Assembly (NCBI GenBank): GCA_031409335.1
Contig: JANNWY010000111.1
Coordinates: 1-51,712 of the forward strand
DNA from: Chthoniobacteraceae bacterium
GTDB taxonomy: Bacteria > Verrucomicrobiota > Verrucomicrobiia > Chthoniobacterales > Chthoniobacteraceae
Reading direction: 5' to 3'
DNA length: 51,712 nt
How positions within the stretch are numbered: the stretch's first letter is position 1; every line of letters starts with the position of its first letter. This document shows positions 3,358 through 37,656 of this stretch, piece after piece. Under the pieces are notes generated by a model, which did not search any database, was not told the DNA's origin, and was given only the letters and a program-made list of their open reading frames with translations. A program made the translations under genes and the position numbers.

Positions 3358-3494
3358 AATCATCCGGGTTGCGGTAGCGCCGCTCACAAGTGGCGGCGGA
3401 CCCGGTAAGGCTGAAAAAAATCGCCCGCCAGCGGTTCAGGTGCTTATTTTCATGAAGTGTTGCCCGACTCAAAGCTCGTCATTTCCAGAACCTC

Positions 3495-7512: not shown

Positions 7513-8199
7513 ACAATACGGCTCACCAATGGCCCGACCGAACACATCGCCTCGCGGCTGCGAGGAGAGGTCGTGGCGGGGCGGTTCCATGCGGGTGAGC
7601 CGTTGCGGGAGGTCGCGCTGGCGGCGGAGTTCGGCGTCGGGCGGACGCTGGTGCGGCAGGCGTTTGGCGTCCTGGTGAAGGAAGGGCTGCTGAAGGCGAG
7701 GCACAACTGCGGGGTCACGGTCGCGGAGCCGCCGTCGCAGGCTGCGCGGGAATTGCTCACGCCGCTGCGGGTGCAAATCGAGACGTATGCGCTGCGGCGA
7801 TGTTTCGATGCGCTGGATGACGCGGCTTTCCGCGAATGGGATGCGCTGCTCATCCGGCTGCGGCACGCGGTGGAGCTGCGCGACCGAGCGGCGATTCTCG
7901 ATGCGGACTTTGCATTTCATCGCTCCATCCTGGCCCGGGCGGGACTGGAGGAACTGGTGCCGGTGTGGCAGCCGGTCATCACGCGATTGCGCGCGTATCA
8001 CGACCGGCGGAACCGCCGCTTTGACGACGGCCAGCTTCCGCTCATCCACGCGATTCACGAGGCGCTCGTGCGCGTGTTTCGCGAGGGGACGAAGCGCGAG
8101 GCGCTGGCCGCGCTCAGGTCGCACATCGAGGACGGCGAGTTCAACCAGCGCGTGCGGCGCGCGTGGCTGCGGCGACAGGCGGGAAGACAGAAACATTGA
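7504..8199 (+). CDS. GntR-family transcriptional regulator (FCD domain)
   Basis: GEPLREVALAAEFGVGRTLVRQAF wHTH; DADFAFHRSI and HEALV FCD motifs. Confidence 0.92.
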   Translation: MQSTIRLTNGPTEHIASRLRGEVVAGRFHAGEPLREVALAAEFGVGRTLVRQAFGVLVKEGLLKARHNCGVTVAEPPSQAARELLTPLRVQIETYALRRCFDALDDAAFREWDALLIRLRHAVELRDRAAILDADFAFHRSILARAGLEELVPVWQPVITRLRAYHDRRNRRFDDGQLPLIHAIHEALVRVFREGTKREALAALRSHIEDGEFNQRVRRAWLRRQAGRQKH

Positions 8200-8301
8200 A
8201 GACAGAAAAATGAGGACTTGGACTTTTGAAATCGTGTTCCGTCAGGGCTGGCCCAGCCCCTGCCTGTCCCCCATTTTTCTCTCTTTAATTTTTCTCTCTT
8301 C
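8183..8301. repeat. Palindromic GACAGAAAAAT element copy 1 (contains gntR stop, PSD1 ATG and signal-peptide core)
   Basis: Left arm 8183-8212 GAAGACAGAAACATTGAAGACAGAAAAATG; right arm 8272-8301 CATTTTTCTCTCTTTAATTTTTCTCTCTTC; 26/30 complementary by hand count. Confidence 0.85.
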
Positions 8302-11239
8302 CCATGCTGCGGCGGAGGATGTGGCGGCGCATTTTGAGGCAAAGATTCGCCCCGTGCTCATCGAGCGGTGCATCGAGTGTCATGGCGCGGAGAAGCAGAA
8401 GGGCGGGCTGCGGCTGGATTCGCGCGAGGGCTGGGAAAAGGGTGGTGAGTCGGGGACGGCCATCGTGCCGGGGGATGTGGAAAAGAGCGTGCTCATCCAC
8501 GCGATTCGCTACACCGATGCGGATTTGAAAATGCCGCCGGGGAAAAAGGGCGGACGGCTTTCCGAGCAGGAGATCGCGGATTTCGAGGCGTGGGTGAAGG
8601 CGGACGCGCATGACCCGCGCAATCTTGCCGACGTGCCGGCGAAGCACACCGTCGCGGACCCGAAAACCTTTTGGTCGTTCCAGCCGGGGCGCGCGGTGAC
8701 GCCGCCGGACGTGAGCAATGCCGCGTGGGTGCGGACGCCGGTGGATGCGTTCATCCTCGCGAGACTCGACGCGGCGGGCCTCTCGCCCGCGCCGCGTGCC
8801 GATGCGCGGACGCTGGTGCGGCGCGCGTATTTCGACCTGCTCGGCCTGCCGCCGACGCCGCAGCAGGTGGACGCTTTCGCAAACGACACCGCGCCGGATG
8901 CGTTCACGCGACTCGTGGATGCGTTGCTCGCGTCACCCCAATACGGCGAGCGTTGGGCGCGGCACTGGCTGGACGTGGCGCGCTACGCGGACAGCGGCGG
9001 ATTCGAGACGGACGTGTATTACCGCCATGCGTGGCGCTATCGCGATTACGTGGTGAAATCGTTCAACGACGACAAGCCCTACGACCGTTTCGTGCAGGAG
9101 CAAATCGCGGGCGACGAACTGTGGCCGGGCGAACTCGACCAGCAGGGCGCACTCGGCCTTCCGGCGGAGCAGCAGCGCCGGCTCGAGGCACGCATCGGCA
9201 CGGGGCTGTTCGCGCTCAGTCCGCAGATTCACGAGTCGAACATGGATGCGCGGAAGATTTCCTACGAGCGCCTGACCGATTGGGCAGACACAACGGGCGC
9301 GGCGTTCATGGGCCTTACGTTCGGCTGCGCGCGCTGCCACGACCACAAATTCGACCCCATCACGCAGCGCGATTATTTCGCGTTGCAGGCGGCGTTCGCG
9401 CCGAGCGCCATCTTGGAGGAGCCGGTCGTCTCGCCGATGGAACAGACGGATTTCAAACAGCACTACCCGACGCTGCTGGCGGTGGATGAAGCGCGGAAGG
9501 CCGTCCGCCTTTTCGAGCAAAGCGTCGCAGGCCGCGCGCTCACTGCCGACGAGCAAACGCGACGAGCGCAACTCCGCGACGCGCTCGCGCAGCGCGTGCT
9601 CGACATTCCCCCCACCGCCACGTCCGCGCCGAACACCGCGTGGGACGGCATTTTTGAAATCCCCTGCGCTTCCGTGCTCGCCCGCGTGCGCACCGGGCTG
9701 GAGCGCCCGGTGCATGTGCTCAATCGTGGCGACCTCGACCGCGAGCGCGAAACCGTGGCACCCGCGCTGCCCGCATCGCTCGCCGCCGCCAGCGGCACCG
9801 CGCCCGCGCTGCCCGGCCCCGAGGGCAGCCGCGCCGCGCTCGCCCGCTGGCTCACCGACCCGCGCCATCCGCTCACCGTGCGCGTGCTGGTGAATCGCGT
9901 GTGGCACGGGCACTTCGGGCGCGGCCTCGTCGCGTCGCTGAATGACTTCGGGCAAATGGGCGAGCGCCCGTCGCATCCCGAATTGCTCGACTGGCTCGCG
10001 GGCGAATTCGTGCGCGGCGGCTGGAGCATCAAAAAGCTGCACCGCGTGATGATGCTTTCCTCCGCTTATCAAATGGACAGCCGTTTTCAAAACGAGCGCG
10101 CCGCGCTGGCCGACCCGCAGAATCGTCTGCTGTGGAAAGCGAACCGCCGCCGTCTCGAAGCCGAGGCGCTGTGGGACGCGATGCACGCCGTCGCGGGCAC
10201 GCTGAATTTGAAAATGGGCGGGCGTCCCGTCGTCCCGCCGCTCGCCGCGGACGAAGGCGCTCCGGCGAATTGGACCGTCTCCGCCGACCCCGCCGAACAC
10301 ACGCGGCGCGGCCTCTACATTTTGCAGCGGCGCAATTTCCGCTTCCCGATGTTCGACGTATTCGACCTCCCTGTGAACGCCGTCAGCGCCCCCGCGCGCG
10401 ACGTGACCACCGTGGCCCCGCAAGCCCTCTGGCTGCTGAACAACAGCACCGCGCAACGCCAAGCCGCCGCCCTCGCCGCGCGGCTCATCGGCAGTGCCGA
10501 GGAAAGCTGGAACCTGCCCACCTTCGGCCCCGGCCAGCCCGGATGGGAAGGCGCGAAATCTGGCATCCACGCCGGCTGGGCGAAGCGCGTTGCGAGCGAA
10601 AAAAACCCGCCGGATTACGACATCCCCATCGGCACCGTCCTCACCCACGGCGCGACCAGCGTGGCGTGGCGCGCACCGGCTGGCCCCAGCGGCCCGGCGG
10701 AAATCCGCGGCGGACTTTGGAACATCCGCCACATCGCCCGCAGCGGCCCGTGGAAGCTGTGGAAGAACGACACGCTGCTCGCCGAAGGCACGCTCGACGA
10801 CAAATCCGGCACGTCCGCAAAGCCGCTCACCTTCACCCACAACACGCCCCTTCAGCCCGGCGACATCGTGCGCCTCGAAATCCTCGAACCCGACTTCGCC
10901 GGAGTGCGCCTCACCATCACCACGCCGCAGCGCACGCACGACATCGCCGCCGACTTTTCCCTCGAAGCGAATCCCACACCTCTCGGCTGGCAATACAGCG
11001 AAAGCCTCGCCAACGGCGGCACTCCGCTTCCGCGAGTCCTCCTCGCGAGGCGCCTCGAAGACCCCGCCGCCCTCGTCGAAGCCGCATGGCGCACCGTGCT
11101 CGGACGCTCGCCGACTGCGGAGGAAAATGCGGAAGCCAGCGCGCTATTGAAATCCCTCAACGCCGCGCAGCCGCACGCCGCCCTCGCGCAGCTCTGCCTC
11201 GCCCTCTTCAACCTTCAGGAGTTCGCGTATGTGGATTGA
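8210..11239 (+). CDS. PSD1 / planctomycete cytochrome C protein (PSCyt1 + DUF1549 + DUF1553)
   Basis: CIECHG...GGLRLDSRE; YGERWARHWLDVARYADS; CARCHDHKFDPI; HPELLDWLA; RRRLEAEALWD; signal peptide. Confidence 0.93.
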   Translation: MRTWTFEIVFRQGWPSPCLSPIFLSLIFLSSHAAAEDVAAHFEAKIRPVLIERCIECHGAEKQKGGLRLDSREGWEKGGESGTAIVPGDVEKSVLIHAIRYTDADLKMPPGKKGGRLSEQEIADFEAWVKADAHDPRNLADVPAKHTVADPKTFWSFQPGRAVTPPDVSNAAWVRTPVDAFILARLDAAGLSPAPRADARTLVRRAYFDLLGLPPTPQQVDAFANDTAPDAFTRLVDALLASPQYGERWARHWLDVARYADSGGFETDVYYRHAWRYRDYVVKSFNDDKPYDRFVQEQIAGDELWPGELDQQGALGLPAEQQRRLEARIGTGLFALSPQIHESNMDARKISYERLTDWADTTGAAFMGLTFGCARCHDHKFDPITQRDYFALQAAFAPSAILEEPVVSPMEQTDFKQHYPTLLAVDEARKAVRLFEQSVAGRALTADEQTRRAQLRDALAQRVLDIPPTATSAPNTAWDGIFEIPCASVLARVRTGLERPVHVLNRGDLDRERETVAPALPASLAAASGTAPALPGPEGSRAALARWLTDPRHPLTVRVLVNRVWHGHFGRGLVASLNDFGQMGERPSHPELLDWLAGEFVRGGWSIKKLHRVMMLSSAYQMDSRFQNERAALADPQNRLLWKANRRRLEAEALWDAMHAVAGTLNLKMGGRPVVPPLAADEGAPANWTVSADPAEHTRRGLYILQRRNFRFPMFDVFDLPVNAVSAPARDVTTVAPQALWLLNNSTAQRQAAALAARLIGSAEESWNLPTFGPGQPGWEGAKSGIHAGWAKRVASEKNPPDYDIPIGTVLTHGATSVAWRAPAGPSGPAEIRGGLWNIRHIARSGPWKLWKNDTLLAEGTLDDKSGTSAKPLTFTHNTPLQPGDIVRLEILEPDFAGVRLTITTPQRTHDIAADFSLEANPTPLGWQYSESLANGGTPLPRVLLARRLEDPAALVEAAWRTVLGRSPTAEENAEASALLKSLNAAQPHAALAQLCLALFNLQEFAYVD

Positions 11240-11252
11240 GTTTTTTCCAAAC

Positions 11253-12344: not shown

Positions 12345-13753
12345 ACTCCACCCACTGCCATCGCCACGCCGCCGCGTTCTCGCGCCGGGATTTCCTTCGC
12401 CAATCCGCGATCGGCTTCGGCGCGTCGGCACTAGGATTTTTAGCGGCACAAGAGGCCGTCGCCGCGACGAATCCGCTCGCGCCCAAGCCGCCGCATTTTC
12501 CCGGCAAGGCGAAGCGCGTCATCTTTTTCTTCATCGGCGGTGGGCCGAGCCAGCTTGAGACGTTCGACCCGAAACCGGCGCTGGTGAAATACAACGGACA
12601 GCCGATGCCTGAGAGTTTTAAGGCTGAAGGCCTTCAGTTGCAGTTTATGAAAGCGAGCGATGGCAGGCTGATGGCGTCGTCGTTTCCGTTCACGAAACAT
12701 GGGCAGTCGGGGCTGGAGATTTCATCGCTTTTTCCCCACCTTGCGCAGCACGCGGACGACCTCGCGGTGATTCGCTCGTGCCATCACGAGTCGTTCATCC
12801 ACGGCCCGGCCTCCGCCCTCATGAACACCGGCTCGACGCTGCTCGGGCATCCGAGCGCGGGCGCATGGGTCACTTACGGACTCGGCAGCGCGACGGATAA
12901 TTTGCCCGCCTACATCACCATGACCGACGGCGGATTCCGTGCGGGTCCGGCGGTGAGTTATGGCAGCGGATTTCTGCCCGCCATTTATCAAGGCACCGTG
13001 CTGCGTGCCGAGGGCACGCCGATTTCCAATCTCTCGCCCACGAACGCAAACGAGCAGCGCACCGTGCTCGACACGCTCACTCGCTGGAACGCTCGCTTCG
13101 CTGCCGAGCGCCCCGACGATTCACGCCTCGCCGCGCAGCTCGCCAACTACGAACTCGCCTACCGGATGCAGACCGCCGCACCCGACCTCATCGCCATCGG
13201 CGATGAAAGCACCGCGACCCGCGAACTCTACGGCGTGGACAAGGAACCCACTGCGAAATTTGGCCGCATGTGCCTGCTCGCGCGGCGCATGGCCGAGCGC
13301 GGCGTGCGCTTCATCCAGCTCTACAACAACGACTGGGACGGTCACGGCGAGTGCGCACAAAACCACGCCGCCAACGCCGCCCGCACCGACCAGCCCATCG
13401 CCGCACTGCTCACCGATTTGAAAGCACGCGGCCTGCTCGAAAGCACGCTTGTCGTGTGGGCCGGCGAATTTGGACGCACACCCGTGATGCAGGGCGCGAA
13501 TGGACGCGATCACAGCCCCTACGGCTTCAGCGTGTGGCTGGCCGGCGGCGGCGTGCGCGGCGGACAAGCCATCGGCGCGACCGACGAACTCGGCTTCCGC
13601 GCCGTGGAAAACAAAGTCCATGTCCATGACCTCCACGCCACCATGCTCGCCGCCCTCGGCCTCGATCACGAAAATCTCACCTACCATTTCGAGGGCCGCG
13701 CGCGGAGGCTGACGGATGTGTTCGGGCACGTCGTTAGGGAGGTGCTGGCGTGA
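12341..13753 (+). CDS. DUF1501 domain protein (Tat-exported)
   Basis: SRRDFL; AKRVIFFFIGGGPSQLETFDPKP; WAGEFGRTP; GRDH; HVHDLHAT. Confidence 0.95.
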   Translation: MNSTHCHRHAAAFSRRDFLRQSAIGFGASALGFLAAQEAVAATNPLAPKPPHFPGKAKRVIFFFIGGGPSQLETFDPKPALVKYNGQPMPESFKAEGLQLQFMKASDGRLMASSFPFTKHGQSGLEISSLFPHLAQHADDLAVIRSCHHESFIHGPASALMNTGSTLLGHPSAGAWVTYGLGSATDNLPAYITMTDGGFRAGPAVSYGSGFLPAIYQGTVLRAEGTPISNLSPTNANEQRTVLDTLTRWNARFAAERPDDSRLAAQLANYELAYRMQTAAPDLIAIGDESTATRELYGVDKEPTAKFGRMCLLARRMAERGVRFIQLYNNDWDGHGECAQNHAANAARTDQPIAALLTDLKARGLLESTLVVWAGEFGRTPVMQGANGRDHSPYGFSVWLAGGGVRGGQAIGATDELGFRAVENKVHVHDLHATMLAALGLDHENLTYHFEGRARRLTDVFGHVVREVLA

Positions 13754-13764
13754 AGCATGAAACC

Positions 13765-13835
13765 TTCACCACCGGCCCCGCCGACATGGGCTACCCGAGC
13801 ACCGCCCAACTCCCCGACGGCAAGCTCGTCACCGT
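13765..13835 (+). pseudogene. 71-bp remnant of a BNR/sialidase gene 3' end (near-copy of 41481-41551)
   Basis: Encodes FTTGPADMGYPSTAQLPDGKLVTV; 66/71 nt identical to 41481-41551 by hand count. Confidence 0.8.
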
Positions 13836-13860
13836 CATCTTGAAAGCTCGAATCATCTCC

Positions 13861-15264: not shown

Positions 15265-17435
15265 AAAAGATGGCTGCTTCTGTCCTTCATTTTTTTGTCT
15301 TACCACGCCGTTATGCGCTGGTTTTTTTACGACAGAAAAATGGAAGACAGAAAGATGGGGCGGGAGGCTTGGGCTGGCTTTGGATGTTGCTGGTTTTGTC
15401 GCTCGGCGTGGCGCGGGCGGAGGAGCCGCTGGACTCGGCGGCCCGGATTCATGCGCTGTCGGCGGAGGAGGCGGATCGTGCGCTGCCGGTGACGCTGGAG
15501 GGTGTGGTCACGTTTTACGACCGGCGATGGAATGCGCTTTTTATTCAGGATCGCAGCGGCGGGTTGTATGTGAAAATCGCGTCCGATAATCCTGCGGTGG
15601 CCACGCTGCGCGCGGGGTTGCGCGTGCAGGTCGAGGGCGTGACGGGACGCGGCCATTTTCTCCCGGAAGTCCGGGGCCGCGATGGCGCGGGGGCCACGGT
15701 GCGGATCATCGGTGAGGCGGCGCTGCCGGAGCCTCTCGCGGTGACGGGCACGCAATTGACCGCTCCCGAACTGGATTGCCAGTGGGTGGAACTTTCCGGC
15801 GTGGTGCGCCCGCCGCGCACTTACCGGCGGGACGCGGTCTTTGCGATCGAGGCCGAGGGGCGCACGTTTTATTGTTACCTGCCGGATGGGGGAAGGCCGC
15901 GCGATCTCGTGCCGGGGATGCTCGGCGTGGGCGTGCGCGTGCGGGCCGTGGCGGGCACGCTTTTCAATGACCGCCGGCAGATGACTGGCCGCGTGCTCTA
16001 CCTGGCCTCGCTCGATCAGGTGCAGGTGCCGGTTGCCGCGGTCGCGCAGGAGGATGTGTTTTTGCGCCCGCTCACCGCCTTTGACGATCTGCTGCGCGGC
16101 GGTCTCCCGGCGGCGCACGATCGGAAAAAGGTGCGCGGGATCGTGATGCTGCCGCTGACCAATGAGGGATTTTTTTTGCGCGGCGAAACGGGTGGCGGGC
16201 TGTGGGTGCAGACTTCGCAGCAGGTGACGGCGAAAAATGTGAGGCCGGGCGACATCGTGGAAGTGGCGGGGTGGCCGGAGGCGGCGGACTACCGTCCGGA
16301 TTTGCGCGGCGGAGTGTTTCGCGTGGTCGGGAATGCCGGGGCGAGGCCGGAGCCGGTGCGCGTGCCGGCGGCGGAATTGCTCGCCGCCGCGCATCACGCC
16401 GATCTCGTGGAGGTGCAGGGCAGCGTGATCGGACGGCTCGACAACGATGAAAGCACGCGCCTCATTTTGTCGGATGGCTCCACCGTTTTCGAGGCGCGGC
16501 TGATGCGTGAGGGCGGCGCGCCCATTCTCCCCGACTGGCCGCGCGACACCCGGCTGCGGCTCACGGGCGTTTGCCAAAATCTCCCCGGCGAGGCGCTGTC
16601 GAACCCCCAGCGCAGCCCGACTTTTATGATCCGGCTCCACCGCCGCGAGGACGTGCAAGTGCTCTCCACGCCGCCGTGGTGGACCACGCGCCGGCTGATC
16701 TGGGGACTCGCGGCGGCGGCGGGTTGCGCACTGCTCGCTGGCGGCTGGGCATTTACCCTGCGGCATCGCGTGACCGCGCAGACTCGCGTGATCGAGGCCC
16801 AGGTCCGCCGCGCCGGAGTGGAGGAGGAAAGGCAGCGGCTCGCGCGCGAGTTGCACGATTCTCTGGAGCAGGAAATGACCGGCGTCGGCCTGCAACTCGA
16901 GACGGCGCTCGCGCGCATGGACGGGCCGCCGGAGCCGGTGCGGCGTTCGGTGGAAAATGCCCGCCGCCTCTTGCAGCGCACGCAGCGCGAGACCCGCGAA
17001 GCCATCTGGGATCTCCGCACCGTGCCGGGCGATCCGCAGGTGCTGCCGGGCCTGCTGCGCGAGGGGCTGGCACCGCTCGTGGAAAGCGCCGGGGCCGAAA
17101 TCGAAATCGTTTGCGACAGCGCACTCCCCGATTCGCTGCCCCGCACGATCACGCATCACCTGCTGCGCATCGCGCACGAGGCGGTCGCGAATGCCCTGCG
17201 CCACGGCCACGCCCGGCAGCTCGCGCTGCGGCTCGTTTTCACCCCGGGCACCGTGACGCTCACCGTCACCGACGACGGCGGCGGCTTCGATCCCGCGCGG
17301 GCGCTCGGCGCGACGCAGGGCCATTTCGGGCTGACCGGCGTGCGCGAACGCGCGGCGAAATGCGGCGGCTCCGTGGAGATAAGCAGCGCGCCGGGCCGGG
17401 GAACTGCGCTAACTTTCACCGCACCGCTCCCATGA
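15261..17435 (+). CDS. Sensor histidine kinase (HisKA_3 / NarQ-like) with a large extracytoplasmic domain; start may be 15384
   Basis: TM helix, then EERQRLARELHDSLEQ, EAVANALRHG, DDGGGFD, GHFGLTGVRERA and PGRGT. Confidence 0.92.
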   Translation: MKKMAASVLHFFVLPRRYALVFLRQKNGRQKDGAGGLGWLWMLLVLSLGVARAEEPLDSAARIHALSAEEADRALPVTLEGVVTFYDRRWNALFIQDRSGGLYVKIASDNPAVATLRAGLRVQVEGVTGRGHFLPEVRGRDGAGATVRIIGEAALPEPLAVTGTQLTAPELDCQWVELSGVVRPPRTYRRDAVFAIEAEGRTFYCYLPDGGRPRDLVPGMLGVGVRVRAVAGTLFNDRRQMTGRVLYLASLDQVQVPVAAVAQEDVFLRPLTAFDDLLRGGLPAAHDRKKVRGIVMLPLTNEGFFLRGETGGGLWVQTSQQVTAKNVRPGDIVEVAGWPEAADYRPDLRGGVFRVVGNAGARPEPVRVPAAELLAAAHHADLVEVQGSVIGRLDNDESTRLILSDGSTVFEARLMREGGAPILPDWPRDTRLRLTGVCQNLPGEALSNPQRSPTFMIRLHRREDVQVLSTPPWWTTRRLIWGLAAAAGCALLAGGWAFTLRHRVTAQTRVIEAQVRRAGVEEERQRLARELHDSLEQEMTGVGLQLETALARMDGPPEPVRRSVENARRLLQRTQRETREAIWDLRTVPGDPQVLPGLLREGLAPLVESAGAEIEIVCDSALPDSLPRTITHHLLRIAHEAVANALRHGHARQLALRLVFTPGTVTLTVTDDGGGFDPARALGATQGHFGLTGVRERAAKCGGSVEISSAPGRGTALTFTAPLP
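15278..15357. repeat. GACAGAAAAAT element copy 2, arms in reversed (back-to-back) order
   Basis: TTCTGTCCTTCATTTTTTTGTCTTA (15278-15302) precedes TACGACAGAAAAATGGAAGACAGAAAGATG (15328-15357); 21/25 complementary. Confidence 0.75.
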
Positions 17436-18070: not shown

Positions 18071-18141
18071 TTCGCGGGATCGCCCGCACCCATCCGATTG
18101 GACGTATAGCCAAAGCCCGCGCCGGGTGTTACCGGGGCATC

Positions 18142-19359: not shown

Positions 19360-19398
19360 ACCGTCTATCTTTCTAAAAGCTATCAACCCACACTCCTT

Positions 19399-20964: not shown

Positions 20965-21852
20965 GACCCAGGGACATTACTTCCGTCTATTTCACCCCCA
21001 CCTAACAACAACAAACAACACCATATTATGAATACGAAATCGCTCGCCCGCGCCTTCACCCTCCTGCCGCTTATTGCCACCTGCCACGCCACAGACCTGT
21101 GGACGGATGGCTTCAATCAGCCCGACAGTTTTAACATCAGAGACCTCAGCGGCCGGCAGGTGTTCGCCACGGGTTCCAATCTGACACCGCCGATTGGCTT
21201 TCTGACCAATGCCGTTACCCCCAGCCAGCCCACGAACTATCACGAGCAAATTCAGGGCAACAAGCTGCTCCTGGCCGGCGATTCGGCGATCGGCACATTC
21301 AATGCGAATCCGTTGTTGGATACGTTCGGTCTGTCACTGGTCGCGCTGAACAAAAACTTCAACGGCCTGACGACCGCTGCATTTGTGGACGGTATTGTCG
21401 CCCAATGCGGGCAGCTCACGCTCAGTCTGGATGCCATGACCAACTCCGCCGCCGGAACCTATGGGTACGCGGGGCTTACCGTCGGTGGAAGCACCATCGC
21501 GGCTTCGGGAACGGTGGGGTTCAGCGTGCGGTTCGTTGAGGATAACCAGTTCGGCAACGGCAATTTTATCCAGTTCTATGATGGTTCTACGTTGATCCAA
21601 AACCTGCTCCCTAATCCGGCGGGCGCGGGTTTGATGGATGTGGATTTGTATTTCAGCGATTTGGACAACAACCCCTGGGACGGGATCGGTGCCACGACGA
21701 TCAGCGTTTTTGTCAACGATATCCAAGTCGGCAGCACCTTCACGAAAGGCGGCGGCGGGTTCAGCAATAACTTCATCTCGCTGGAAGGTTCCGACGATAA
21801 GGTGACGCACAATATCGGTATTCACACCGTGGATAGCATCACGATTGCCGCA
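19399..21852 (+). repeat. Diverged tandem duplication of ~825 bp (19399-20223 vs 21028-21852)
   Basis: Ungapped alignment of the translated N-terminal domains with long identical stretches (e.g. GTYGYAGLTVGG, TFTKGGGGFSNNFI). Confidence 0.85.
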
Positions 21853-21930: not shown

Positions 21931-21933
21931 TCT

Positions 21934-29282: not shown

Positions 29283-29294
29283 CTTGGAGAAAAA

Positions 29295-29406
29295 GACAGA
29301 AAAATTCGGGACAGGAAAATGGGACGGGATTTGCACACTTCTATACACAGGCCGGGGGCGCGGAAATGCCCGAGCCCCCATTTTTCTGCCTCCAATTTTT
29401 TCTGTC
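29295..29406. repeat. GACAGAAAAAT element copy 3, intergenic between convergent genes
   Basis: GACAGAAAAATTCGGGACAGGAAAATGGG (29295-29323) ... CCCATTTTTCTGCCTCCAATTTTTTCTGTC (29377-29406). Confidence 0.82.
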
Positions 29407-29429
29407 GTAAAATGAGCTGCGCACCCCGC

Positions 29430-30269: not shown

Positions 30270-30275
30270 GAGCGG

Positions 30276-30284
30276 ATATTACCA
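30276..30284 (-). promoter_or_regulatory. Extended -10 promoter (TGnTAATAT) for a probable leaderless araC transcript
   Basis: Minus strand reads TGG TAATAT CCGCTC ATC GCC... Confidence 0.5.
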
Positions 30285-30348
30285 TTATTTGCGGGTTCGG
30301 CCATAGCTTTGTCGGGCGCGGGTGAGTAGGGTCTGCTTGATGTTTGCA

Positions 30349-30449
30349 GACAGAAAAATTTGGGACAGAAAGATGAGGGCGGAGGTTTTAAGCTTCCGTC
30401 ATGGATGGGCGTTTCTGGTTCAGATTTTTCTGTCTCTCATTTTTCTGTC
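30349..30449. repeat. GACAGAAAAAT element copy 4 (contains PSD1 ATG and signal-peptide core)
   Basis: GACAGAAAAATTTGGGACAGAAAGATG (30349-30375) ... GATTTTTCTGTCTCTCATTTTTCTGTC (30423-30449); 22/27 complementary. Confidence 0.85.
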
Positions 30450-33400
30450 GTCCGCCTCTGCCGCCGACGCGCTGGTGTTGATGAATGGTTCGGGAAAAAT
30501 CGAGCGTTACGACATGGCGAGCGGGGCGCATGTGGGGACGCTGCTGAGCGGGCTGCCGCCGTCGAATGTGCTGCTCTTCGATGCGGAGGGGCGGCTGCTG
30601 ATTTCCACCGGGCTGCCGGGCGGCGTGGGGAATGTGCTGCGCTACGATATGCGCGGGAAGCTGGAGACGTGGCTCGATGTGCCGGAGGGTTATGGCGGGC
30701 GGTTGTTTCGCGCGACGGGGATGACGTGGCACGAGGGAGATTTGCTGGTGGCGAGTCAGGGCGATGGGAAGGTGAAGCGGTTCGATGGGAAGTCGGGCGA
30801 ATGGCTGGCGGACGTGGCGCTGGCGTCGCCGGGCGGGATGACGCAAATCGCGATACACGGCGGGCGGTTGTTCGTCACGGATTTCTCCGCGCAGATGGTG
30901 CGTCGTGCATCGGAGAAGCTGGATGGCACGATGAGCGAGGCGTGGGCGCAGCACGCAGCGCAGTCGCCGTGGGGGCTGGTCTTCGATACGGAAGGGCGGG
31001 CGTATTGGAGCACGTCGGCAAACCGCATTCATCGCTTTGATGGCAAGGTGAATGTCGAGTGGGCTGGTGCGGGCGGCGGGTTGAATATTCCCATCGGACT
31101 GGCGCTGGGGCCGGATGGAAATCTCTACGCGGCGAGTTTGCACGGGAAGGTCACGGTGTGGAAAACGGACGCGCCGAATGCGGGCGCACCGTTGCGGGTT
31201 TTCGGCGGTGCGGAGATGAAGGAGCCTATCAGCATCGTGTTCACGGATGCGCCGCGCGGGGCGGAATTTGTCCACGCGCCGCCGGTGGCGGCGGGCGCGG
31301 AATCCGCGGAGAAGGTGGCTTTTTTTGAGGCGAAAATCCGTCCGCTGTTCGTCGCAAAGTGCATCGAGTGTCATGGCGAGAAGAAGCAAAAGGGCGGGCT
31401 GCGGCTCGACTCGCGGGCGGCGTGGCAGGCGGGCGGTGACACGGGGAAGGCCATCGTGCCGGGCAAGGCGGAGGAGAGTTTGCTCATCAAGGCAGTGCGT
31501 TATACGGACAAGGATTTGCAGATGCCGCCAAAGCAGGCGCTCTCGCCGGATGACGTGGCCGTGCTCGTGGAGTGGGTGAACCAAGGCGCGGTGGACCCGC
31601 GCACTGACGCCACCATTTCCACCCAGCCCGCGACGGATGAATGGGCCGCGGAATTTCAAAAGCGGCTGGACTGGTGGAGCCTGAAGCCTTTGCAAAATAC
31701 CGAGCCGCCGGACGTGGCCGATGCCGCGTGGAGCCGCGAACCGGTGGACCGTTTTGTGAAAGCGGCGCTGGATGCTGCGGGCCTCGCGCCCGCGCCGCGA
31801 GCGGAGGCGGAGGTGTTGCGGAGGCGGCTGGCTTTTGTGCTCACGGGGTTACCGCCGGGGGAGGCGACGGATGAGCCTTATGAAGCCACCGTGGACCACC
31901 TGCTCGCCTCGCCGCATTTCGGTGAACGCATGGCCCGGCACTGGATGGACGCGGTGCGCTACACCGACACCTACGGCTACGAATGGGACGTGCCCGCGAA
32001 AGGTTCGCATGAATACCGCGACTACCTCATCCGCGCCTTCAATGGCGACGTGGGCTTCGACCAATTTCTCCGCGAACAACTCGCGGGCGACCTGCTCGCG
32101 CAGCCGCGTCTCGGCGAGAAAAAGCAAATCAACGAGAGCCTCATCGGCCCGATGTTTTACCACATGGGCGAGCATCGCCACGGCAGCAGCCTCGATGCGA
32201 ACGGCGTGCATCAGGAAATGGTGAACAACAAAATTGACGCCTTCTCCAAAGTCTTTCTCGCCACCACCGTCGCCTGCGCACGGTGCCACGACCACAAGCT
32301 GGAGGCCGTCTCGCAGCGCGATTACTACGCGCTCGGCGCGGTCTTCATCACGCCGCGCTGGACGAGCCGTTGCGTGGATGCGCCGGGGAAAAATGACGCC
32401 GCCATCGCCCGGCTCACCGCCCTCCGCGCCAGCATCCGCAGCGAACTCGCGGCCCGCTGGAAGTCCGCGCCCATCACGCCGGAAGGCTGGCGCGCGCCGC
32501 TGGAAGTGAAGGATGCGCCCGTCCCGAAAATCGAAGACATCGCCTATCCGCTGGCCCGCCTCACGAAAGCCGAGGGCGGCATCGAAGCGACATGGAATGC
32601 GCTCGCCAAAGAATGGGCCGACACCCGCGCCGCGCGTGTGAAAGCGAACGCTGCCTTCGCCGTGCTCGCCGATTTTTCGCAGCCGCAATTCCCCGCCGGC
32701 TGGAGCGTCGAGGGCGATGGACTCCTGCATGGCTGGGTGCCGGAAGCCACGCCGCTCATCGCGCTGGAGGGCGATGCGGTCGTCGCCCGGCTGCTGCCGC
32801 GCGGCTATCACACGCACGCGCTTTCCTCGCGGCTGCCCGGCGCTTTGCACATGCCGCCGCAGCATCTGGTCGCGGGCGCTTTCGCCAGTCTGCGGCTCGC
32901 GGGCGGCGAGTTCGGCGGGCATCTGACGATGGATGAAAACACGTTCCTCAATGAGCGCGTCACTTTCTACAACGAGGTGAAGCCCGCGTGGAAAACCTTT
33001 GGCGACACGCCGCTGAAAAGCGGCGTCACGCGCGTCACGCTCGATTTCGCCACCGCCGCGCTGAACCCGAATTTTCCACCGCGCCACGGCATCGCGCCCG
33101 GCCTTCCGGCCACGGACGCGGGCTTTGATAAACGAAGCTGGCTGAGTCTCACCGGCATCGTCACGCACGACGCGGGCGGCACGCCGCAGGACACGCTCGA
33201 CGCCTTCGCCGCGCTCTACGACGGCCCCGCGCCGAAGACCGTGGAGGAAGCGACCGCCCGCCTCGCCGCATGGCTCACCGGCGCCGTGCATCGCTGGTGC
33301 GATGACCAAACGCCGCCGGCCGACGGCCCCGTGCTCGACTGGCTCCTCGCGAATAAATTGCTACCCAACCAAGCCGACGCCGGCAGCCCGCTCGCGTCCC

Positions 33401-34458
33401 TCGTCGCGGAATATCGCCGCGTGGAAAGCGCCATCGCCTTTCCCCGCACCGTCAACAGCATGGACGAGCGCGACACCGCCAAGTGCGGTCTGCAACTCAA
33501 CGTGCGCGGCAACGTGGACGCTCCCGGCGAGCTGGTGATGCCCGACTTTTTGCAAATGTTCGCGGGCCGCAACGACGTCGCGAAAAGCGCCGGCAGCGGA
33601 CGCCTCGAACTCGCCGACGCGCTGCTGCGCCCCGAGCATCCGCTCACCTCGCGCGTTTATGTGAACCGCGTGTGGCAATGGATTTTCGGCGCGGGCCTCG
33701 TCGCTACGCCGGATGACTTTGGCCGCCTTGGCGACAAGCCTTCGCACCCCGAATTACTCGACTGGCTGGCGCGCGAATTTCAGCGCGACGGCTGGTCCAC
33801 CAAGCGGCTCATCCGCCGCCTCGTCCTCAGCGAAACCTTCCGCCAGTCCGGCCTCGTCACCGCCGCCGCCCGCGAGCGCGACCCGGCCAACCGTCTGCGC
33901 CATCACTACCCCACGCGCCGCCTCGAAGCCGAAGCCATCCGCGACACCCTGCTCGCCGTCTCCGGTCGTCTCGACCCCGAGCTCTACGGACGCCCCATCA
34001 ATCCACCGCGCACCGCCGAGGACGCAAACAAACGCCTCTTCTCCGGCCCGCTCGACGGCGACGGACGCCGCTCGCTCTACTTGAAAATGAGCATCATGGC
34101 CCCGCCGAAATTTCTCACCGCCTTCGACCTCCCCGACCTGAAACTCCCCAGCGGCAAACGCAACCTCACCCGCGTCCCCGCGCAATCACTGCTCATGCTC
34201 AACGACCCGCTCGTGAGCACGCTCGCCAAACATTGGGCCGTGCAGCTTTTGCAAACACCACACGCCACGCCGGAGGAACGCCTCACCGCCATGTTTCACC
34301 GCGCCTACAGCCGCGCCCCGCAGCCGCCGGAGCTGGCGCAATGGACAGCCGCCCTGCGCGACTTCGCCACCACCGCCGACCTCATGCACGACGAAGCCGC
34401 ATGGACCCAGCTCGCGCACGCGATGTTCAACACGCAGGAATTCATCCACTACCGCTGA
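30373..34458 (+). CDS. PSD1 / planctomycete cytochrome C protein (DUF1549 + DUF1553) with an N-terminal NHL/SMP-30-like beta-propeller
   Basis: Propeller repeats (PWGLVFDTEG, PIGLALGPDGNLY); CIECHG; FGERMARHWMD; CARCHDHK; HPELLDWLA; RRLEAEAIRD. Confidence 0.92.
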   Translation: MRAEVLSFRHGWAFLVQIFLSLIFLSSASAADALVLMNGSGKIERYDMASGAHVGTLLSGLPPSNVLLFDAEGRLLISTGLPGGVGNVLRYDMRGKLETWLDVPEGYGGRLFRATGMTWHEGDLLVASQGDGKVKRFDGKSGEWLADVALASPGGMTQIAIHGGRLFVTDFSAQMVRRASEKLDGTMSEAWAQHAAQSPWGLVFDTEGRAYWSTSANRIHRFDGKVNVEWAGAGGGLNIPIGLALGPDGNLYAASLHGKVTVWKTDAPNAGAPLRVFGGAEMKEPISIVFTDAPRGAEFVHAPPVAAGAESAEKVAFFEAKIRPLFVAKCIECHGEKKQKGGLRLDSRAAWQAGGDTGKAIVPGKAEESLLIKAVRYTDKDLQMPPKQALSPDDVAVLVEWVNQGAVDPRTDATISTQPATDEWAAEFQKRLDWWSLKPLQNTEPPDVADAAWSREPVDRFVKAALDAAGLAPAPRAEAEVLRRRLAFVLTGLPPGEATDEPYEATVDHLLASPHFGERMARHWMDAVRYTDTYGYEWDVPAKGSHEYRDYLIRAFNGDVGFDQFLREQLAGDLLAQPRLGEKKQINESLIGPMFYHMGEHRHGSSLDANGVHQEMVNNKIDAFSKVFLATTVACARCHDHKLEAVSQRDYYALGAVFITPRWTSRCVDAPGKNDAAIARLTALRASIRSELAARWKSAPITPEGWRAPLEVKDAPVPKIEDIAYPLARLTKAEGGIEATWNALAKEWADTRAARVKANAAFAVLADFSQPQFPAGWSVEGDGLLHGWVPEATPLIALEGDAVVARLLPRGYHTHALSSRLPGALHMPPQHLVAGAFASLRLAGGEFGGHLTMDENTFLNERVTFYNEVKPAWKTFGDTPLKSGVTRVTLDFATAALNPNFPPRHGIAPGLPATDAGFDKRSWLSLTGIVTHDAGGTPQDTLDAFAALYDGPAPKTVEEATARLAAWLTGAVHRWCDDQTPPADGPVLDWLLANKLLPNQADAGSPLASLVAEYRRVESAIAFPRTVNSMDERDTAKCGLQLNVRGNVDAPGELVMPDFLQMFAGRNDVAKSAGSGRLELADALLRPEHPLTSRVYVNRVWQWIFGAGLVATPDDFGRLGDKPSHPELLDWLAREFQRDGWSTKRLIRRLVLSETFRQSGLVTAAARERDPANRLRHHYPTRRLEAEAIRDTLLAVSGRLDPELYGRPINPPRTAEDANKRLFSGPLDGDGRRSLYLKMSIMAPPKFLTAFDLPDLKLPSGKRNLTRVPAQSLLMLNDPLVSTLAKHWAVQLLQTPHATPEERLTAMFHRAYSRAPQPPELAQWTAALRDFATTADLMHDEAAWTQLAHAMFNTQEFIHYR

Positions 34459-34461
34459 CCT

Positions 34462-35892
34462 ATGAAACACACCAACTGCCCCGGCTCCATCCCTCCTGCG
34501 CTCACACGGCGCGGCTTTCTCCAGCAGGCTTCGGCGGGCTTTGGCTGGCTCGCGATGAACGGGCTTTTTTCCAAAGAAGCGCAGGCGGCGGCCCACTTCG
34601 CGGCGCGGGCGAAGAATGTGATTTTCTGCTTCATGGATGGCGGACCGAGTCATGTGGATACGTTCGATTTCAAGCCGATGCTCAAGAAGCATCAGGGGCA
34701 GCCCATCGGCACGAGCTGGACCTCGAAGAGGTCGGACTCCACGGCGGGGCGCGTGTGGTTTGGCAGTCCGTGGGAGTTCCAGCAGCGCGGCGAAAGCGGG
34801 CTGTGGGTGAGCGATTTGTTTCCGCATCTCGCGGGCGTGGCGGACCATCTGTGCGTGGTGCGCTCGATGGTCGGCGAGCTTCCGCTGCACGGGCAGTCGA
34901 ATCTTTTGCTCCACACTGGACGCATCGGCGGACAGGCCCCGAGCCTCGGCGCGTGGGTGTCGTATGGACTCGGCACGGAGAATAAAAACCTGCCGGGCTA
35001 TGTGCTGCTGAACAACGATTGGGTGCCGAACGGCGGGCTGGAAAACTTTGGCAGTTCGTTCCTGCCCGCGAGTCATCAGGCCACCACGATGCGGGCGCGC
35101 GGCACGCCGGTGGACAACATCGCGCCGGTGGATTCCGCCACGATGCAGCGTCGGAAGCTGGCGCTGCTGGCCGGGCAGGACGCGGCGTTTGCGGCGCAGA
35201 GTTCCGAGGCGGCGGACATTGAGGCGGCCATCGCGAACTACGAGACGGCTTTCCTCATGCAGAGCACGGTGCCGGACATCGCGGACATTTCGCACGAGCC
35301 GGAGCACATCCGCAAATTCTACGGACTCGACTCCACCGACGAACACCAGCGCCTCTACGCCACGCAGGCGCTCCGGGCGCGGCGGCTCGTGGAGGCTGGC
35401 GTGCGCTTTGTGGAAATCACCTGCCCGAGTTTCGACGGCAACAACTCGCCGTGGGACCAGCACGGCCAGCTCAAGGCGTTGCACGAAAAGAACGCCCGCA
35501 TCACCGAGCAATCCGTCGCCGCGCTCATCACCGACCTGCACCAGCGTGGACTGCTCGAAGACACCATCGTGCTCTGGGCCGGCGAAATGGGCCGCACCCC
35601 GCACACGCCCGCCATCACCGCCGCCGCAGGCCGCGACCACCATGTGAGCGGCTACACGATTTTCATGGCGGGCGGCGGATTCAAAGGCGGCACGGCGTAT
35701 GGCGAGACGGACGAATTCGGCGCGAACGCCGTGGTGAATCCCGTGAGCGTCCACGACATCCACGCCACGATTTTGCACCAGCTCGGCCTCGACCACACGC
35801 GCCTCACCTTCCGCCACGGAGGCCGCGACCAGCGGCTCACGGATGTGCATGGGCACGTCATCCGCGAGGTGCTGGACGACAGAAAAATTTAA
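34462..35892 (+). CDS. DUF1501 domain protein (Tat-exported)
   Basis: TRRGFL; AKNVIFCFMDGGPSHVDTFDFKP; WAGEMGRTP; GRDHH; VHDIHATIL. Confidence 0.95.
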   Translation: MKHTNCPGSIPPALTRRGFLQQASAGFGWLAMNGLFSKEAQAAAHFAARAKNVIFCFMDGGPSHVDTFDFKPMLKKHQGQPIGTSWTSKRSDSTAGRVWFGSPWEFQQRGESGLWVSDLFPHLAGVADHLCVVRSMVGELPLHGQSNLLLHTGRIGGQAPSLGAWVSYGLGTENKNLPGYVLLNNDWVPNGGLENFGSSFLPASHQATTMRARGTPVDNIAPVDSATMQRRKLALLAGQDAAFAAQSSEAADIEAAIANYETAFLMQSTVPDIADISHEPEHIRKFYGLDSTDEHQRLYATQALRARRLVEAGVRFVEITCPSFDGNNSPWDQHGQLKALHEKNARITEQSVAALITDLHQRGLLEDTIVLWAGEMGRTPHTPAITAAAGRDHHVSGYTIFMAGGGFKGGTAYGETDEFGANAVVNPVSVHDIHATILHQLGLDHTRLTFRHGGRDQRLTDVHGHVIREVLDDRKI

Positions 35893-35994
35893 GACAGAAA
35901 AATGAAGACAAAGATGACTCAATTCACTGGTGGAGAGCGCCGACGCCGTAGCTCCACCTGCTCCATTTTTCTGTCCTCAATTTTTCTGTCGTCC
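35874..35994. repeat. GACAGAAAAAT element copy 5 (contains DUF1501 stop, next ATG and signal-peptide core)
   Basis: GGACGACAGAAAAATTTAAGACAGAAAAATG (35874-35904) ... CATTTTTCTGTCCTCAATTTTTCTGTCGTCC (35964-35994); 29/31 complementary. Confidence 0.9.
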
Positions 35995-37566
35995 GCGTGG
36001 GTCTCAGCGGCGGAGTTCACCATCTCCGTCACCGATGCCGCGACGCAGGGGCCGGTGGCGGCCCGTGTTTATGTGGAAAATGCGGAGACGGGCAGCCGTC
36101 ATTTTGTGCGGGCGCACAGCACGTTGGCCGGGGTGGTTTACGAAAAGAAAAACTGGGCGAATGAGAAGTCCATCGAGCATCACACCAGCGTGCCAGCGGC
36201 TCCGTTTGTGGCGGAGAATTTGCCGGCGGGGACTTACACGCTGACTGTCGAGCGGGGGAAAGAATACTTCCCCGAGACGCGGAGCATCGTGCTGGCGGAG
36301 GGTGAAAAGCGGGCGGTGGAAACGGTGGCGCTGCGGCGGTGGGTGAACATGGCGGAACGTGGTTGGTTTTCCGGCGAGACGCATTTGCACCGCCCGCTCA
36401 ATGAACTGCCGGTGGTGATGCAGGCGGAGGATTTGAACGTCGCGATGCCGCTGACTTATTGGGTGACGAAAGCCTTCACGCCGCCCGCGCAGGGGAACAA
36501 AAATCAGAGCGGCGAAATTCCCGACCGGCTCATGGAAGTGGACGCCACGCACGTCATCTGGCCGCGCAATACGGAATACGAAATCTTCACCGTCGGTGAG
36601 CACAAGCACACGCTCGGCGCGCTCTTCGTCCTCAATCATCGCAGCGTCTTCGACAAAGGCGTGCCCGACTGGAAACCCGTCGCCGAGCAGGCGCGGGCCG
36701 AGGGCGCGGTCATGGACATGGACAAACTGGACTGGCCCTTCGGCATGACGCTGCCGCTCACGTCGGGCGCGACGCTTTACGAACTGGCGAATAATCACAT
36801 GTGGCGTTGCGAGTTTGGCCTCACGAAATGGGTCACGCCCGCGCCCGCCTTTCTCCAGCCTCCGAATGGCGGCACGGGCGGCGACGAGCGCGACTGGCTG
36901 GCCTACACGCTCGGCCAATACTACACGCTGCTCGACGCGGGATTTCGACTCGTGCCGACGGCGGGCACGGCGAGTGGCGTGCATCCGGTGCCCGCGGGAT
37001 TCAGCCGCGTGTATGTGAAAATGGACGGTGCGTTCAGCTACGAAAAATGGCTCGCAGGGCTAAAAGAAGGCCGCAGTTTCGTCACCACTGGCCCGATGAT
37101 TTTTGCCGAGATCAACGGACAGCAGGCTGGCGCGACGCTCGCGGGCGGCAGCGTGAAAATTTCCGCCAAAATCCTCAGCGAACATCCGCTCGCGAACATC
37201 GAAGTCGTCTCCAATGGCCGCGTCGTCGCCACGCTGAAGCCGCAAAACAAACCCACACCCGAAGGCGTTCGGCAAAGCGAAGTCGCCGCCGAAATCCCCG
37301 CCGCGACGAGCGGATGGCTGTGCCTCCGCTGCACCGAAGACCGGCCCGATCGGCGGTTGCGCTTCGCCCACACCGCGCCGTGGTGGAATGAGGTTCCGGG
37401 TAAACCACTGCGGCCCTCGCAGCAGGAAAAGGATTACCTCATCGCCCGCGTGAAGGCCGAAATCGCCCGCAGCACCGGCATCGTCCCCGCATCGGCGCTG
37501 GCGGAATACGAGGCGGCGCTGAAACACTTCGAGACGATGCCGACGGAGGAACGACAAAAAGATTGA
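35902..37566 (+). CDS. CehA/McbA-family (PHP-like) metallohydrolase, secreted
   Basis: YTLTVERGKEY; GWFSGETHLHR; AEDLNV; GFSRVYV; GRSFVTTGPM. Confidence 0.85.
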   Translation: MKTKMTQFTGGERRRRSSTCSIFLSSIFLSSAWVSAAEFTISVTDAATQGPVAARVYVENAETGSRHFVRAHSTLAGVVYEKKNWANEKSIEHHTSVPAAPFVAENLPAGTYTLTVERGKEYFPETRSIVLAEGEKRAVETVALRRWVNMAERGWFSGETHLHRPLNELPVVMQAEDLNVAMPLTYWVTKAFTPPAQGNKNQSGEIPDRLMEVDATHVIWPRNTEYEIFTVGEHKHTLGALFVLNHRSVFDKGVPDWKPVAEQARAEGAVMDMDKLDWPFGMTLPLTSGATLYELANNHMWRCEFGLTKWVTPAPAFLQPPNGGTGGDERDWLAYTLGQYYTLLDAGFRLVPTAGTASGVHPVPAGFSRVYVKMDGAFSYEKWLAGLKEGRSFVTTGPMIFAEINGQQAGATLAGGSVKISAKILSEHPLANIEVVSNGRVVATLKPQNKPTPEGVRQSEVAAEIPAATSGWLCLRCTEDRPDRRLRFAHTAPWWNEVPGKPLRPSQQEKDYLIARVKAEIARSTGIVPASALAEYEAALKHFETMPTEERQKD

Positions 37567-37656
37567 TGACAAAAAGATGAAGACACCCACCACGCACCAC
37601 CGCGCTCCCAGCCCGCCCTCCACTCCCCATTTTTTTGTCATCAATTTTTTCGTCGT
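37551..37656. repeat. GACAGAAAAAT element copy 6 (variant GACAAAAAGAT; contains stop, ATG and signal-peptide core)
   Basis: ACGACAAAAAGATTGATGACAAAAAGATG (37551-37579) ... CATTTTTTTGTCATCAATTTTTTCGTCGT (37628-37656); 26/29 complementary. Confidence 0.88.

Follow-up and report, generated by a model that had tools for sequence, protein, structure and literature searches.

Palindromic repeats that supply gene starts and predicted signal-peptide cores in a Chthoniobacteraceae bacterium, and their probable kinship with a long GxxExxY nuclease cassette

Six palindromic copies at gene junctions

The window analysed here, a stretch of 51,712 nucleotides (contig JANNWY010000111.1, assembly GCA_031409335.1) from a Chthoniobacteraceae bacterium, contains six palindromes with a 15-nt period at its gene junctions. 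An A-rich arm of two 15-nt units is followed by a T-rich arm that is its reverse complement, and the spacers between the arms are unrelated among the six copies.

Element 1 (8183..8303, plus strand; left arm 8186-8212, right arm 8272-8301) carries in its left arm the stop codon of a GntR gene (8197-8199) and the ATG, at 8210, of a predicted exported DUF1549/DUF1553/PSCyt1 gene (8210..11239, plus strand). The right arm, together with a degenerate third unit at 8257-8271, encodes the predicted h-region of this DUF1549/DUF1553 cytochrome-c protein, and a paralog at C14 has the same element-derived signal. A second predicted exported DUF1549/DUF1553/PSCyt1 gene (30373..34458, plus strand) begins at the ATG of element 4 (30346..30452, plus strand), the right arm of which (30423-30452) forms the predicted h-region of a propeller-DUF1549/DUF1553 protein. 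Element 4 supplies no stop because the upstream gene is divergent. Two CehA/McbA hydrolase genes then follow one another on the plus strand. The first (35902..37566) takes its ATG from element 5 (35874..35994, plus strand), which also holds the stop of a DUF1501 gene (35890-35892), and ends at the stop codon (37564-37566) of element 6, the GACAAAAAGAT variant (37550..37657, plus strand); the second (37577..40180) begins at the ATG of element 6. The right arm of element 5 (35964-35993) is the predicted h-region of the first hydrolase, and that of element 6, read in a second frame, supplies the beginning of the h-region predicted for the second.

The other two copies are not read through in this way. 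Element 2 (15273..15357, plus strand), at the 5' end of a gene for a sensor kinase, has its polarity reversed relative to the other copies, with the T-rich arm first, a point absent from the original prediction; the ATG in its arm does not share the reading frame of the kinase, which retains its own h-region downstream. Element 3 (29292..29408, no strand assigned) is non-coding and lies between convergent genes, a plus-strand gene ending at 29282 and a minus-strand AraC gene ending at 29430.

The six positions at gene boundaries, the three stop codons, the four ATGs and the peptides read from the arms are all as given in the original prediction, which was made from the letters of the window. 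Arm complementarity beyond that of shuffled sequence, a check named there, was found in every copy: against 200 dinucleotide shuffles the folding z-scores are -4.7, -3.3, -3.6, -5.2, -8.1 and -8.8, with no shuffle folding as well for five copies and 2 of 200 doing so for the copy at 15278. A 30-nt matrix derived from the arms of the six copies exceeds 25 bits at 16 sites of the 7.9-Mb genome, against none in an order-4 Markov simulation. The window's variant is scarce genome-wide, at about ten copies, of which six lie on the window's contig (binomial P 1.6e-11, from its share of the length) and two at C14, within a related gene cluster. Because contigs from other runs bridge the copies at 29295, 30349, 35874 and 37551, with 0-1 differences, these four are not assembly artefacts; the 35874 copy is also spanned in runs from a second study. 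The stretch compared took in these four but not the copies at 8183 and 15278.

A nuclease-fold gene between matching arms

In many bacteria, arms of this family bracket a gene for a GxxExxY protein of about 260 aa with a PD-(D/E)XK fold. This long form is a tandem duplicate of the fold, the two halves of which align; the catalytic residues are intact in the N-terminal half and degenerate in the second. Across 48 long proteins, D and E are each conserved in 47 and K in all 48. The proteins score 53-73 bits against the TIGR04256 profile (cut-off 35), and the N-terminal half alone lies above the cut-offs of both TIGR04256 and PF13366 (PDDEXK_3). A structure model (pLDDT 94) has two similar halves, with Cas4 and restriction nucleases as the nearest folds; among solved structures none was a close relative (best Z 7.4, rmsd 2.3, 93 aligned), and this result only places the fold. 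The long form comprises 810 clusters at 50% identity. PMC3424549 describes the GxxExxY family (TIGR04256/PF13366) as widespread and transferred multiple times, with its function listed as unknown.

Inverted arms surround the long GxxExxY gene at 41 of 44 loci, and at 38 of 41 where loci were chosen by protein alone. In controls the figures were 1 of 34 (shifted) and 0 of 44 (shuffled). A 15-nt period is present on both flanks at 27 of the 44 loci (0 of 34 shifted). Cassettes have either a single arm or a complete hairpin on each side, and some lie within housekeeping operons. The window's own GACAG arm variant brackets a long GxxExxY gene in four of five arm-rich genomes, including two of the three that were chosen blind. 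The same arms occur at at least 127 loci in six phyla, with up to 403 matches in a genome that has the cognate cassette. Similarity of the arms correlates weakly with that of the proteins (Mantel rho 0.23, 14 of 2000 permutations), in a test where a strict pattern labelled 27 of 48 loci and left 21 unlabelled, and where kin share labels; the tree of the 48 nucleases was a quick one. The original prediction noted that the 15-nt period preserves reading frame. A period of 14-16 nt accompanies the long GxxExxY form, and the sister repeat families of the source genome have periods of 6-9 nt.

A linked mobiliser had been expected to be either a RAYT/IS200-type TnpA or a small nuclease gene flanked by the same repeats. 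The long GxxExxY gene answers to the second description; the first was abandoned, as the genome has 11 Y1_Tnp matches and arms were present at none of the 10 loci examined. Short GxxExxY and four-helix-bundle genes were likewise rejected as partners, since those that are armed carry different arms; in the source genome a 6-9-nt period is found at the short GxxExxY gene and at most of the four-helix-bundle genes. The source genome has three long GxxExxY genes, each with an arm variant unlike that of the window, and no nuclease gene with GACAG arms was found in its assembly. Among eight viral-contig matches, none had the nuclease gene within about 1 kb. No description of the pairing between the long GxxExxY gene and these arms was found in the literature outside most subscription journals.

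Start codons and predicted signal-peptide cores within the arms

Four window copies read through into predicted exported proteins that have no alternative in-frame start, and the gap between their 26-nt arm cores is 49-61 nt. All four predicted signals follow an n-h-c order, carry small residues at -1/-3 and stop where the mature domain of homologs begins. This Sec layout was assessed by alignment to 120 (35902) and 118 (37577) homologs and by eye for 8210 and 30373, export and cleavage being predictions judged by eye and from homolog alignments. At the sequence level, A-rich arms often include both a stop and an ATG; the T-rich arm usually lacks stops in two frames, and one frame is strongly hydrophobic.

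Most orthologs of the element-started genes lack the element and have ordinary signal peptides. An ortholog with 85% identity to the C27 gene shows an intermediate state, having both the element and a native h-region. Orthologs of the 35902 gene were found in 2 of 150 genomes of the family and, with the query used, in none of 300 genomes of the phylum. Judged from these comparisons, signal-peptide use of the arms is recurrent yet recent.

Two further routes to this state were considered. Fission of a gene by the element at 35902/37577 is suggested by the existence of fused CehA-CehA proteins but was rejected: these form a separate clade, and the closest relatives of the element-bearing clade are stand-alone genes (FastTree, midpoint root, clades judged without a clade test). 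Deletions anchored on one side at the arm are not supported by the one ortholog pair available, which retains about 10 nt of native sequence past the arm and requires a second indel in the spacer.

In the source genome, a sister subfamily provides whole signals for four unrelated proteins, a DUF1587/1595 cytochrome, a 3-keto-disaccharide hydrolase, a sulfatase and a protein with a weak DUF7133 match, through both cassette-downstream hairpins and two solo copies. The spacer DNA of these copies has diverged, while their length and hydrophobic residues are constant. All four of the copies with a matching spacer give a complete signal in the same frame, a regularity beyond what recruitment purely by chance would predict.

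It might be supposed from this that the cassette has become adapted as a carrier of a portable stop, start and signal peptide, with or without translational coupling, so that its insertions at the 5' ends of exported genes are harmless or useful. Such an adaptation would account for the four same-frame signals and for a fifth complete one, in L160, for the retention of the element-derived signal in orthologs of 90-93% identity, and for the base-pairing of the AUG within predicted stems. We nevertheless regard it as improbable. In L217, L218, L230 and L236, from other genomes, the sister subfamily is read in another frame, before an intact native signal. Of 135 T-rich arms, 69 are followed by no gene in the sense direction and about 10 lead into signal-like N-termini; only about 5-6 of 32 cassettes with a downstream gene are read through the arm (by eye), the remainder of the genes starting at their own codon. 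Most arms in other genomes similarly precede a gene's own start or no sense gene. Although five of the six window copies lie at starts of predicted exported genes, this is no enrichment, because of the 23 genes in this region of the window 19 are predicted (by eye) to be exported anyway. Coupling to an upstream ribosome cannot operate at 30373, as the upstream neighbour is on the opposite strand. Arms in signal use occupy all three reading frames, and the element-derived signal has been lost from a 97%-identical ortholog that falls within the element-bearing clade. Thus, of the proposed REP/MITE-like element domesticated as a signal cassette, the REP/MITE-like character and the element-encoded starts, stops and cores are retained; signal supply as the element's purpose is not.

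Movement, origin and comparison with known systems

In our preferred reading, to which we give a probability of roughly two in three, the six repeats are gene-less remnants of the long-GxxExxY cassette family, the nuclease having aided their spread, and the arms were later recruited as signals. Recruitment of an arm as start and signal core was most likely by chance, not design.

The nadC-coaX junction illustrates the variability of such sites. Among 28 resolved loci in one genus, 15 are empty, three hold full cassettes, one a gene-less hairpin of the window's family, eight hairpins of a 7-nt family and one another insert, and these states are scattered across the coaX tree. In the source genome, an 86%-identical cassette occupies two unrelated places, C126 and C246, and homology stops at the outer ends of the arms. 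No target-site duplication, which in classical DDE/IS630 MITEs is often TA, is evident at the C126/C246 ends or between filled and empty nadC-coaX sites, the genomes compared being diverged. Several cassettes appear vertically inherited, occupying the same site in related genomes. Because all of this evidence is comparative, mobilisation is something we infer; spread by the nuclease appears likely.

The GxxExxY protein could instead be a domesticated repeat-binding or hairpin-processing factor, acting on DNA or mRNA, with the hairpins arising and spreading by host recombination and replication slippage. PD-(D/E)XK nucleases cut and, to our knowledge, have no obvious strand-transfer chemistry. 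Persistence of cassettes at orthologous sites, the gathering of unrelated 7-nt hairpins at nadC-coaX and the mere ten or so copies in the source genome would also suit a protein that is not a mobiliser. Against it stand the near-obligate flanking by matching arms, which change in sequence with the protein clade, the duplicated cassette that ends at its arms, and the arm matches, up to 403, in a genome with a cognate cassette; we consider this as improbable as an adapted signal cassette. A role for the repeats as operators, or as terminator or RNA-processing hairpins, in the window's gene cluster is very improbable: their concentration on one contig, the copy between convergent genes and the stability of the hairpins would fit, but the arms span six phyla and bracket the nuclease in housekeeping operons, orthologs of the cluster genes mostly lack the repeats, and Rfam gave no match at gathering thresholds.

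On the remnant reading, the long GxxExxY protein, lying between matching arms with its first-half catalytic site conserved, would bind the two-unit arms or their hairpin and then cut. Host repair would copy, insert or delete the unit, and arm-spacer-arm remnants would stay behind at tight junctions within operons. An exported gene might tolerate an in-frame remnant at its 5' end; small deletions could later strip the redundant native start or h-region, and selection would retain the survivors, turning an arm into a signal peptide. As no cassette with the exact arm variant was found in the assembly, the window's copies probably arrived with a transferred gene island.

A broader proposal is tentative and, in our view, rather doubtful: that the long GxxExxY cassette is an undescribed class of mobile element, based on a single-chain, pseudo-dimeric PD-(D/E)XK nuclease without a transposase or recombinase, whose arms double as a stop-start-signal-peptide module that spares secreted-enzyme genes and has repeatedly re-made export signals of the PVC secretome.

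Because the long GxxExxY form almost always comes with defined arms, a substrate can be named for it and a direct biochemical test becomes feasible. The ortholog series, from ordinary signal through element plus native h-region to element only and loss, traces the stepwise origin of a targeting signal from repeat DNA, several independent times in one genome. For annotation, the element-derived N-termini should probably be accepted as genuine and not treated as starts called in error.

In REP/REPIN-RAYT and TIRtron/TIRYT systems, as described in PMC3733652, a small single gene has palindromic or inverted flanking repeats, and gene-less copies are dispersed at gene boundaries, at times within reading frames, PVC bacteria included. 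The arms described here are also dispersed as gene-less doublets at gene boundaries, and the apparent vertical inheritance of cassettes at one site resembles that of domesticated RAYTs. However, where those systems have an HUH Y1 tyrosine transposase, the partner here is a GxxExxY protein of PD-(D/E)XK fold, and the arms are tandem 15-nt units without a GTAG/CGTC-tagged short stem; some right arms end in CGTC, and ends vary family-wide. If the long GxxExxY protein does mobilise the arms, this would be a REPIN-RAYT-like system built on different chemistry. As in a classical MITE, the terminal inverted repeats are shared with an autonomous-type unit, the long-GxxExxY cassette, but the partner has a PD-(D/E)XK fold, unlike the DDE transposase of DDE/IS630 MITEs.

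PMC2229807 describes the Rickettsia palindromic element (RPE) as a conserved 105-146-bp element in frame inside conserved genes, and reports Yersinia YPAL/RU-2 as part of the predicted signal peptide of one gene, YPO1552. Here too a palindromic repeat is read in frame. The likeness to RPE that had been drawn goes little further: conservation is confined to the arms while the spacer varies, copies lie at gene starts and junctions and not inside conserved genes, and, unlike either RPE or YPAL/RU-2, the repeats have taken the place of native signals in many unrelated genes, using three frames, and have a candidate partner gene; among the diverged genomes compared, no target duplication is evident. 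That partner differs in turn from the standard GxxExxY protein (TIGR04256/PF13366) in its second, catalytically degenerate copy of the fold and in its arms of 14-16-nt period.

The element and its surroundings

The six-copy palindromic element of the window is a real feature, and the positions originally predicted for all six copies are correct. Five copies have the layout proposed for them, with two 15-nt units in the A-rich arm, then a spacer, then the T-rich complement; the copy at 15273-15357 has the T-rich arm first. Every copy folds much better than shuffled sequences (z -3.3 to -8.8). In the source genome (G000; 7.9 Mb, 98% complete, PVC-type gene content with DUF1549, DUF1553 and planctomycete cytochrome c) 16 sites exceed 25 bits on an arm matrix, against none in a Markov simulation, and four copies are spanned, unchanged or nearly so, by contigs of other runs. 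The predicted stops, ATGs and peptides also check out, as do starts within the element: the genes at 8210, 30373, 35902 and 37577 have no in-frame start between right arm and mature domain. Translational coupling, which had also been proposed, is plausible at the three stop-bearing copies, because the AUG is base-paired within predicted stems and the stop lies 10 nt upstream; it cannot apply at 30373.

About 10 copies of this arm variant occur in G000: six on the window's contig, two on contig C14 in a related cluster, and two intergenic. The C14 cluster (1-21000) carries, with its two copies, paralogs of several window genes at 72-89% DNA identity. Only one of 40 relatives has an arm match. 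A GTDB genome scan gave at least 127 loci (record titles for 80), which among the matches listed fall in Planctomycetota, Verrucomicrobiota, Acidobacteriota, KSB1, Bacteroidota and one betaproteobacterium; five of these genomes have between 19 and 403 arm matches each (reversed control 0). Such patchiness over phyla, together with local clustering, would be expected of an element carried by transferred DNA. Some arms stand in long arrays (loci L154/L155 and L093/L094; period about 153 nt in L154, steps alternating between 54 and 68 nt in L093) reminiscent of BIME clusters.

Other parts of the window are also repeated. The end of a BNR gene (40164-41654) recurs before a sulfatase gene as a 76-nt, 91%-identical copy (13750-13840 versus 41481-41556), probably a trace of local gene shuffling. 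Neighbouring paralogous genes at 19397-20204 and 21026-21833 share 80% identity, one having a PEP-CTERM-like tail and the other a different C-terminal domain. Positions 1-4600, with a zeta-toxin-like ORF (167-949) and a 397-aa ORF lacking a family match (969-2162), match several further contigs (C190, C228, C294, C151, C171) at 79-99%, suggesting a mobile-element edge.

The arms pair with a long GxxExxY gene

Two kinds of linked mobiliser had been envisaged. A RAYT/Y1 transposase is not borne out, with arms at none of ten Y1-transposase loci examined, out of 11 matches in G000. A small nuclease gene between the same repeats was found: the long GxxExxY gene, with inverted arms at 41 of 44 loci. 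Starting from arms, it adjoins them in 8 of at least 127 GTDB loci (six distinct sites), 47 of the 127 listed having flanks of just 300 nt. Protein-first sampling added 23 metagenome loci and 30 loci from 24 of the 401 genomes of the phylum; flank was sufficient in 44 of 59 loci in total. Upstream and downstream flanks hold an inverted match of at least 19/26 nt in those 41 (38/41 among loci picked by protein alone), compared with 1/34 shifted and 0/44 shuffled controls. A 15-nt period is present on both flanks in 27/44 loci versus 0/34 in the control, with 14 nt in five and 16 nt in two. Arms are alike within a locus and different from locus to locus, and the cassettes have two layouts, arm-gene-arm or hairpin-gene-hairpin. 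The gene is present in all five arm-rich genomes, and in four the window's own variant flanks it, two of the five having been picked in knowledge of this. The three long GxxExxY genes of G000 all have other arm variants; the window copies are therefore orphans in this assembly. No paper on the pairing was found in the literature searched.

The N-half of the protein scores above the thresholds of TIGR04256 and PF13366, the latter listed as an unknown-function family (PMC3424549), and the catalytic D and E-x-K are conserved in 47/48, 47/48 and 48/48 proteins. The C-half, whose profile gives 810 clusters at 50% identity, lacks these residues; its pairwise alignment with the N-half spans 96 columns (E 6e-4, probability 29%), and in the structure model (pLDDT 94, pTM 0.88) an identical helix/strand order occurs twice. 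We read the protein as a single-chain pseudo-dimer with one predicted active site, and guess that the protein spans both units of an arm. Among solved structures, Cas4 and restriction-type nucleases come nearest in fold (best Z 7.4, rmsd 2.3, 93 aligned), a likeness that places the fold and shows no function.

In G000 the short GxxExxY gene, like six of the seven PF05635 four-helix-bundle genes listed, lies between inverted arms built of tandem 6-9-nt units, whose sequence is particular to each gene (C155:8880-9350, C318:21467-21784, C229:22861-23181, C205:36328-36612, C143:1401-1685, C297:9986-10273, C4:56-364; loci L001, L006-L011). At the seventh PF05635 gene (C289) the copies are direct, not inverted.

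Predicted signal peptides derived from arms

The element had been proposed to be a domesticated signal cassette, to be checked by its enrichment at the starts of exported genes. There is no such enrichment in the window: five of six copies stand at exported-gene starts, in line with a background, judged by eye, of 19 exported genes among 23 in this part of the window. Among 135 T-rich arms (80 GTDB loci), 69 have no sense gene, 27 are followed by a stop and 39 by open frames, about 10 of which lead, by eye, into signal-like N-termini; counting window copies, arms are read in all three frames. Of 46 cassettes examined, 32 have a readable downstream gene, about 5-6 of which read through the arm. 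Over 30-nt segments that take in some flanking bases, mean hydropathy of the T-rich arm reaches 2.4 in one frame, and two of its frames are almost free of stops (5/85, 1/85); in the A-rich arm, two frames contain stops in roughly half of cases. Recruitment would therefore be easy. Left arms of other variants provide the upstream gene's final codons or stop at C114:11620-11710 in G000, on C30 (L201) and on C246 (L196).

Domestication finds its strongest point in a sister subfamily of G000, in which four unrelated proteins each get a complete signal of 20 residues, all in one frame, from two cassette-downstream hairpins and two solo copies. The spacer DNA has diverged while length and hydrophobic residues are constant, which suggests selection after recruitment; in other genomes, however, the subfamily is read otherwise.

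Most orthologs, in the comparison that had been suggested, bear ordinary signals. Of 120 homologs of 35902, two, at 93% and 90% identity, keep its element-derived core, one further homolog (86%) has a different arm variant in a different frame, and the remaining complete homologs have ordinary signals. The four closest homologs likewise end in arm-derived residues. In genome G474 the signal of the 35902 ortholog is an ordinary one with no element upstream, a lone left arm providing the stop; DNA homology begins just past one element and extends up to where the next left arm ends. For 37577, element-like N-termini occur in 3 of 118 matches; a 97%-identical match nested among these three lacks such an N-terminus. 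Given this ortholog series, the ancestral state was most likely an ordinary signal, and the element-derived signals would be recent and replaceable. Genome G497 provides an intermediate: in its ortholog (85% DNA identity) of a gene on C27, an intact native h-region comes after the element; in G000 the element alone stands directly against the mature domain. The native h-region is also retained at C14:18733 and at the 15278 copy.

Signs of movement and known systems

Two cassettes of G000, on C126 and C246, have unrelated surroundings and share 86% identity along 952 nt, a stretch that starts at the first hairpin's outer end and finishes at the outer end of the last one. In genus g96, the nadC-coaX junction (L243-L272) could be resolved at 28 of 30 loci: 15 are empty (gap 2-24 nt), three hold a full cassette, one a gene-less hairpin with the cassette's arms, eight hairpins of a 7-nt family and one a different insert, these states being scattered over the coaX tree (FastTree, midpoint root, no clade test). 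Neither comparison shows an evident target duplication. Several cassettes occupy one same site across related genomes, and arm and protein similarity correlate weakly (rho 0.23, 27 labelled loci), both of which count against frequent movement. At least three unrelated hairpin families are gathered at nadC-coaX, and in L253 a hairpin of 9-nt type is nested within one of 7-nt type. In L158, 3' of the nuclease gene, the upstream-gene end, hairpin arm and nuclease-gene start occur again after the cassette, suggesting a tandem duplication bounded by arms.

The nuclease would recognise and cut the arms, host repair would complete insertion or deletion, and element-derived peptides would export their proteins. 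The arm-GxxExxY system resembles REPIN-RAYT/TIRtrons (PMC3733652) in its working and falls outside them because the partner of the arms is not a Y1 transposase. Yersinia YPAL/YPO1552, where a repeat makes up part of a predicted signal peptide, is a precedent for a repeat-derived predicted signal, and the Rickettsia RPEs are one for palindromes in frame (PMC2229807).
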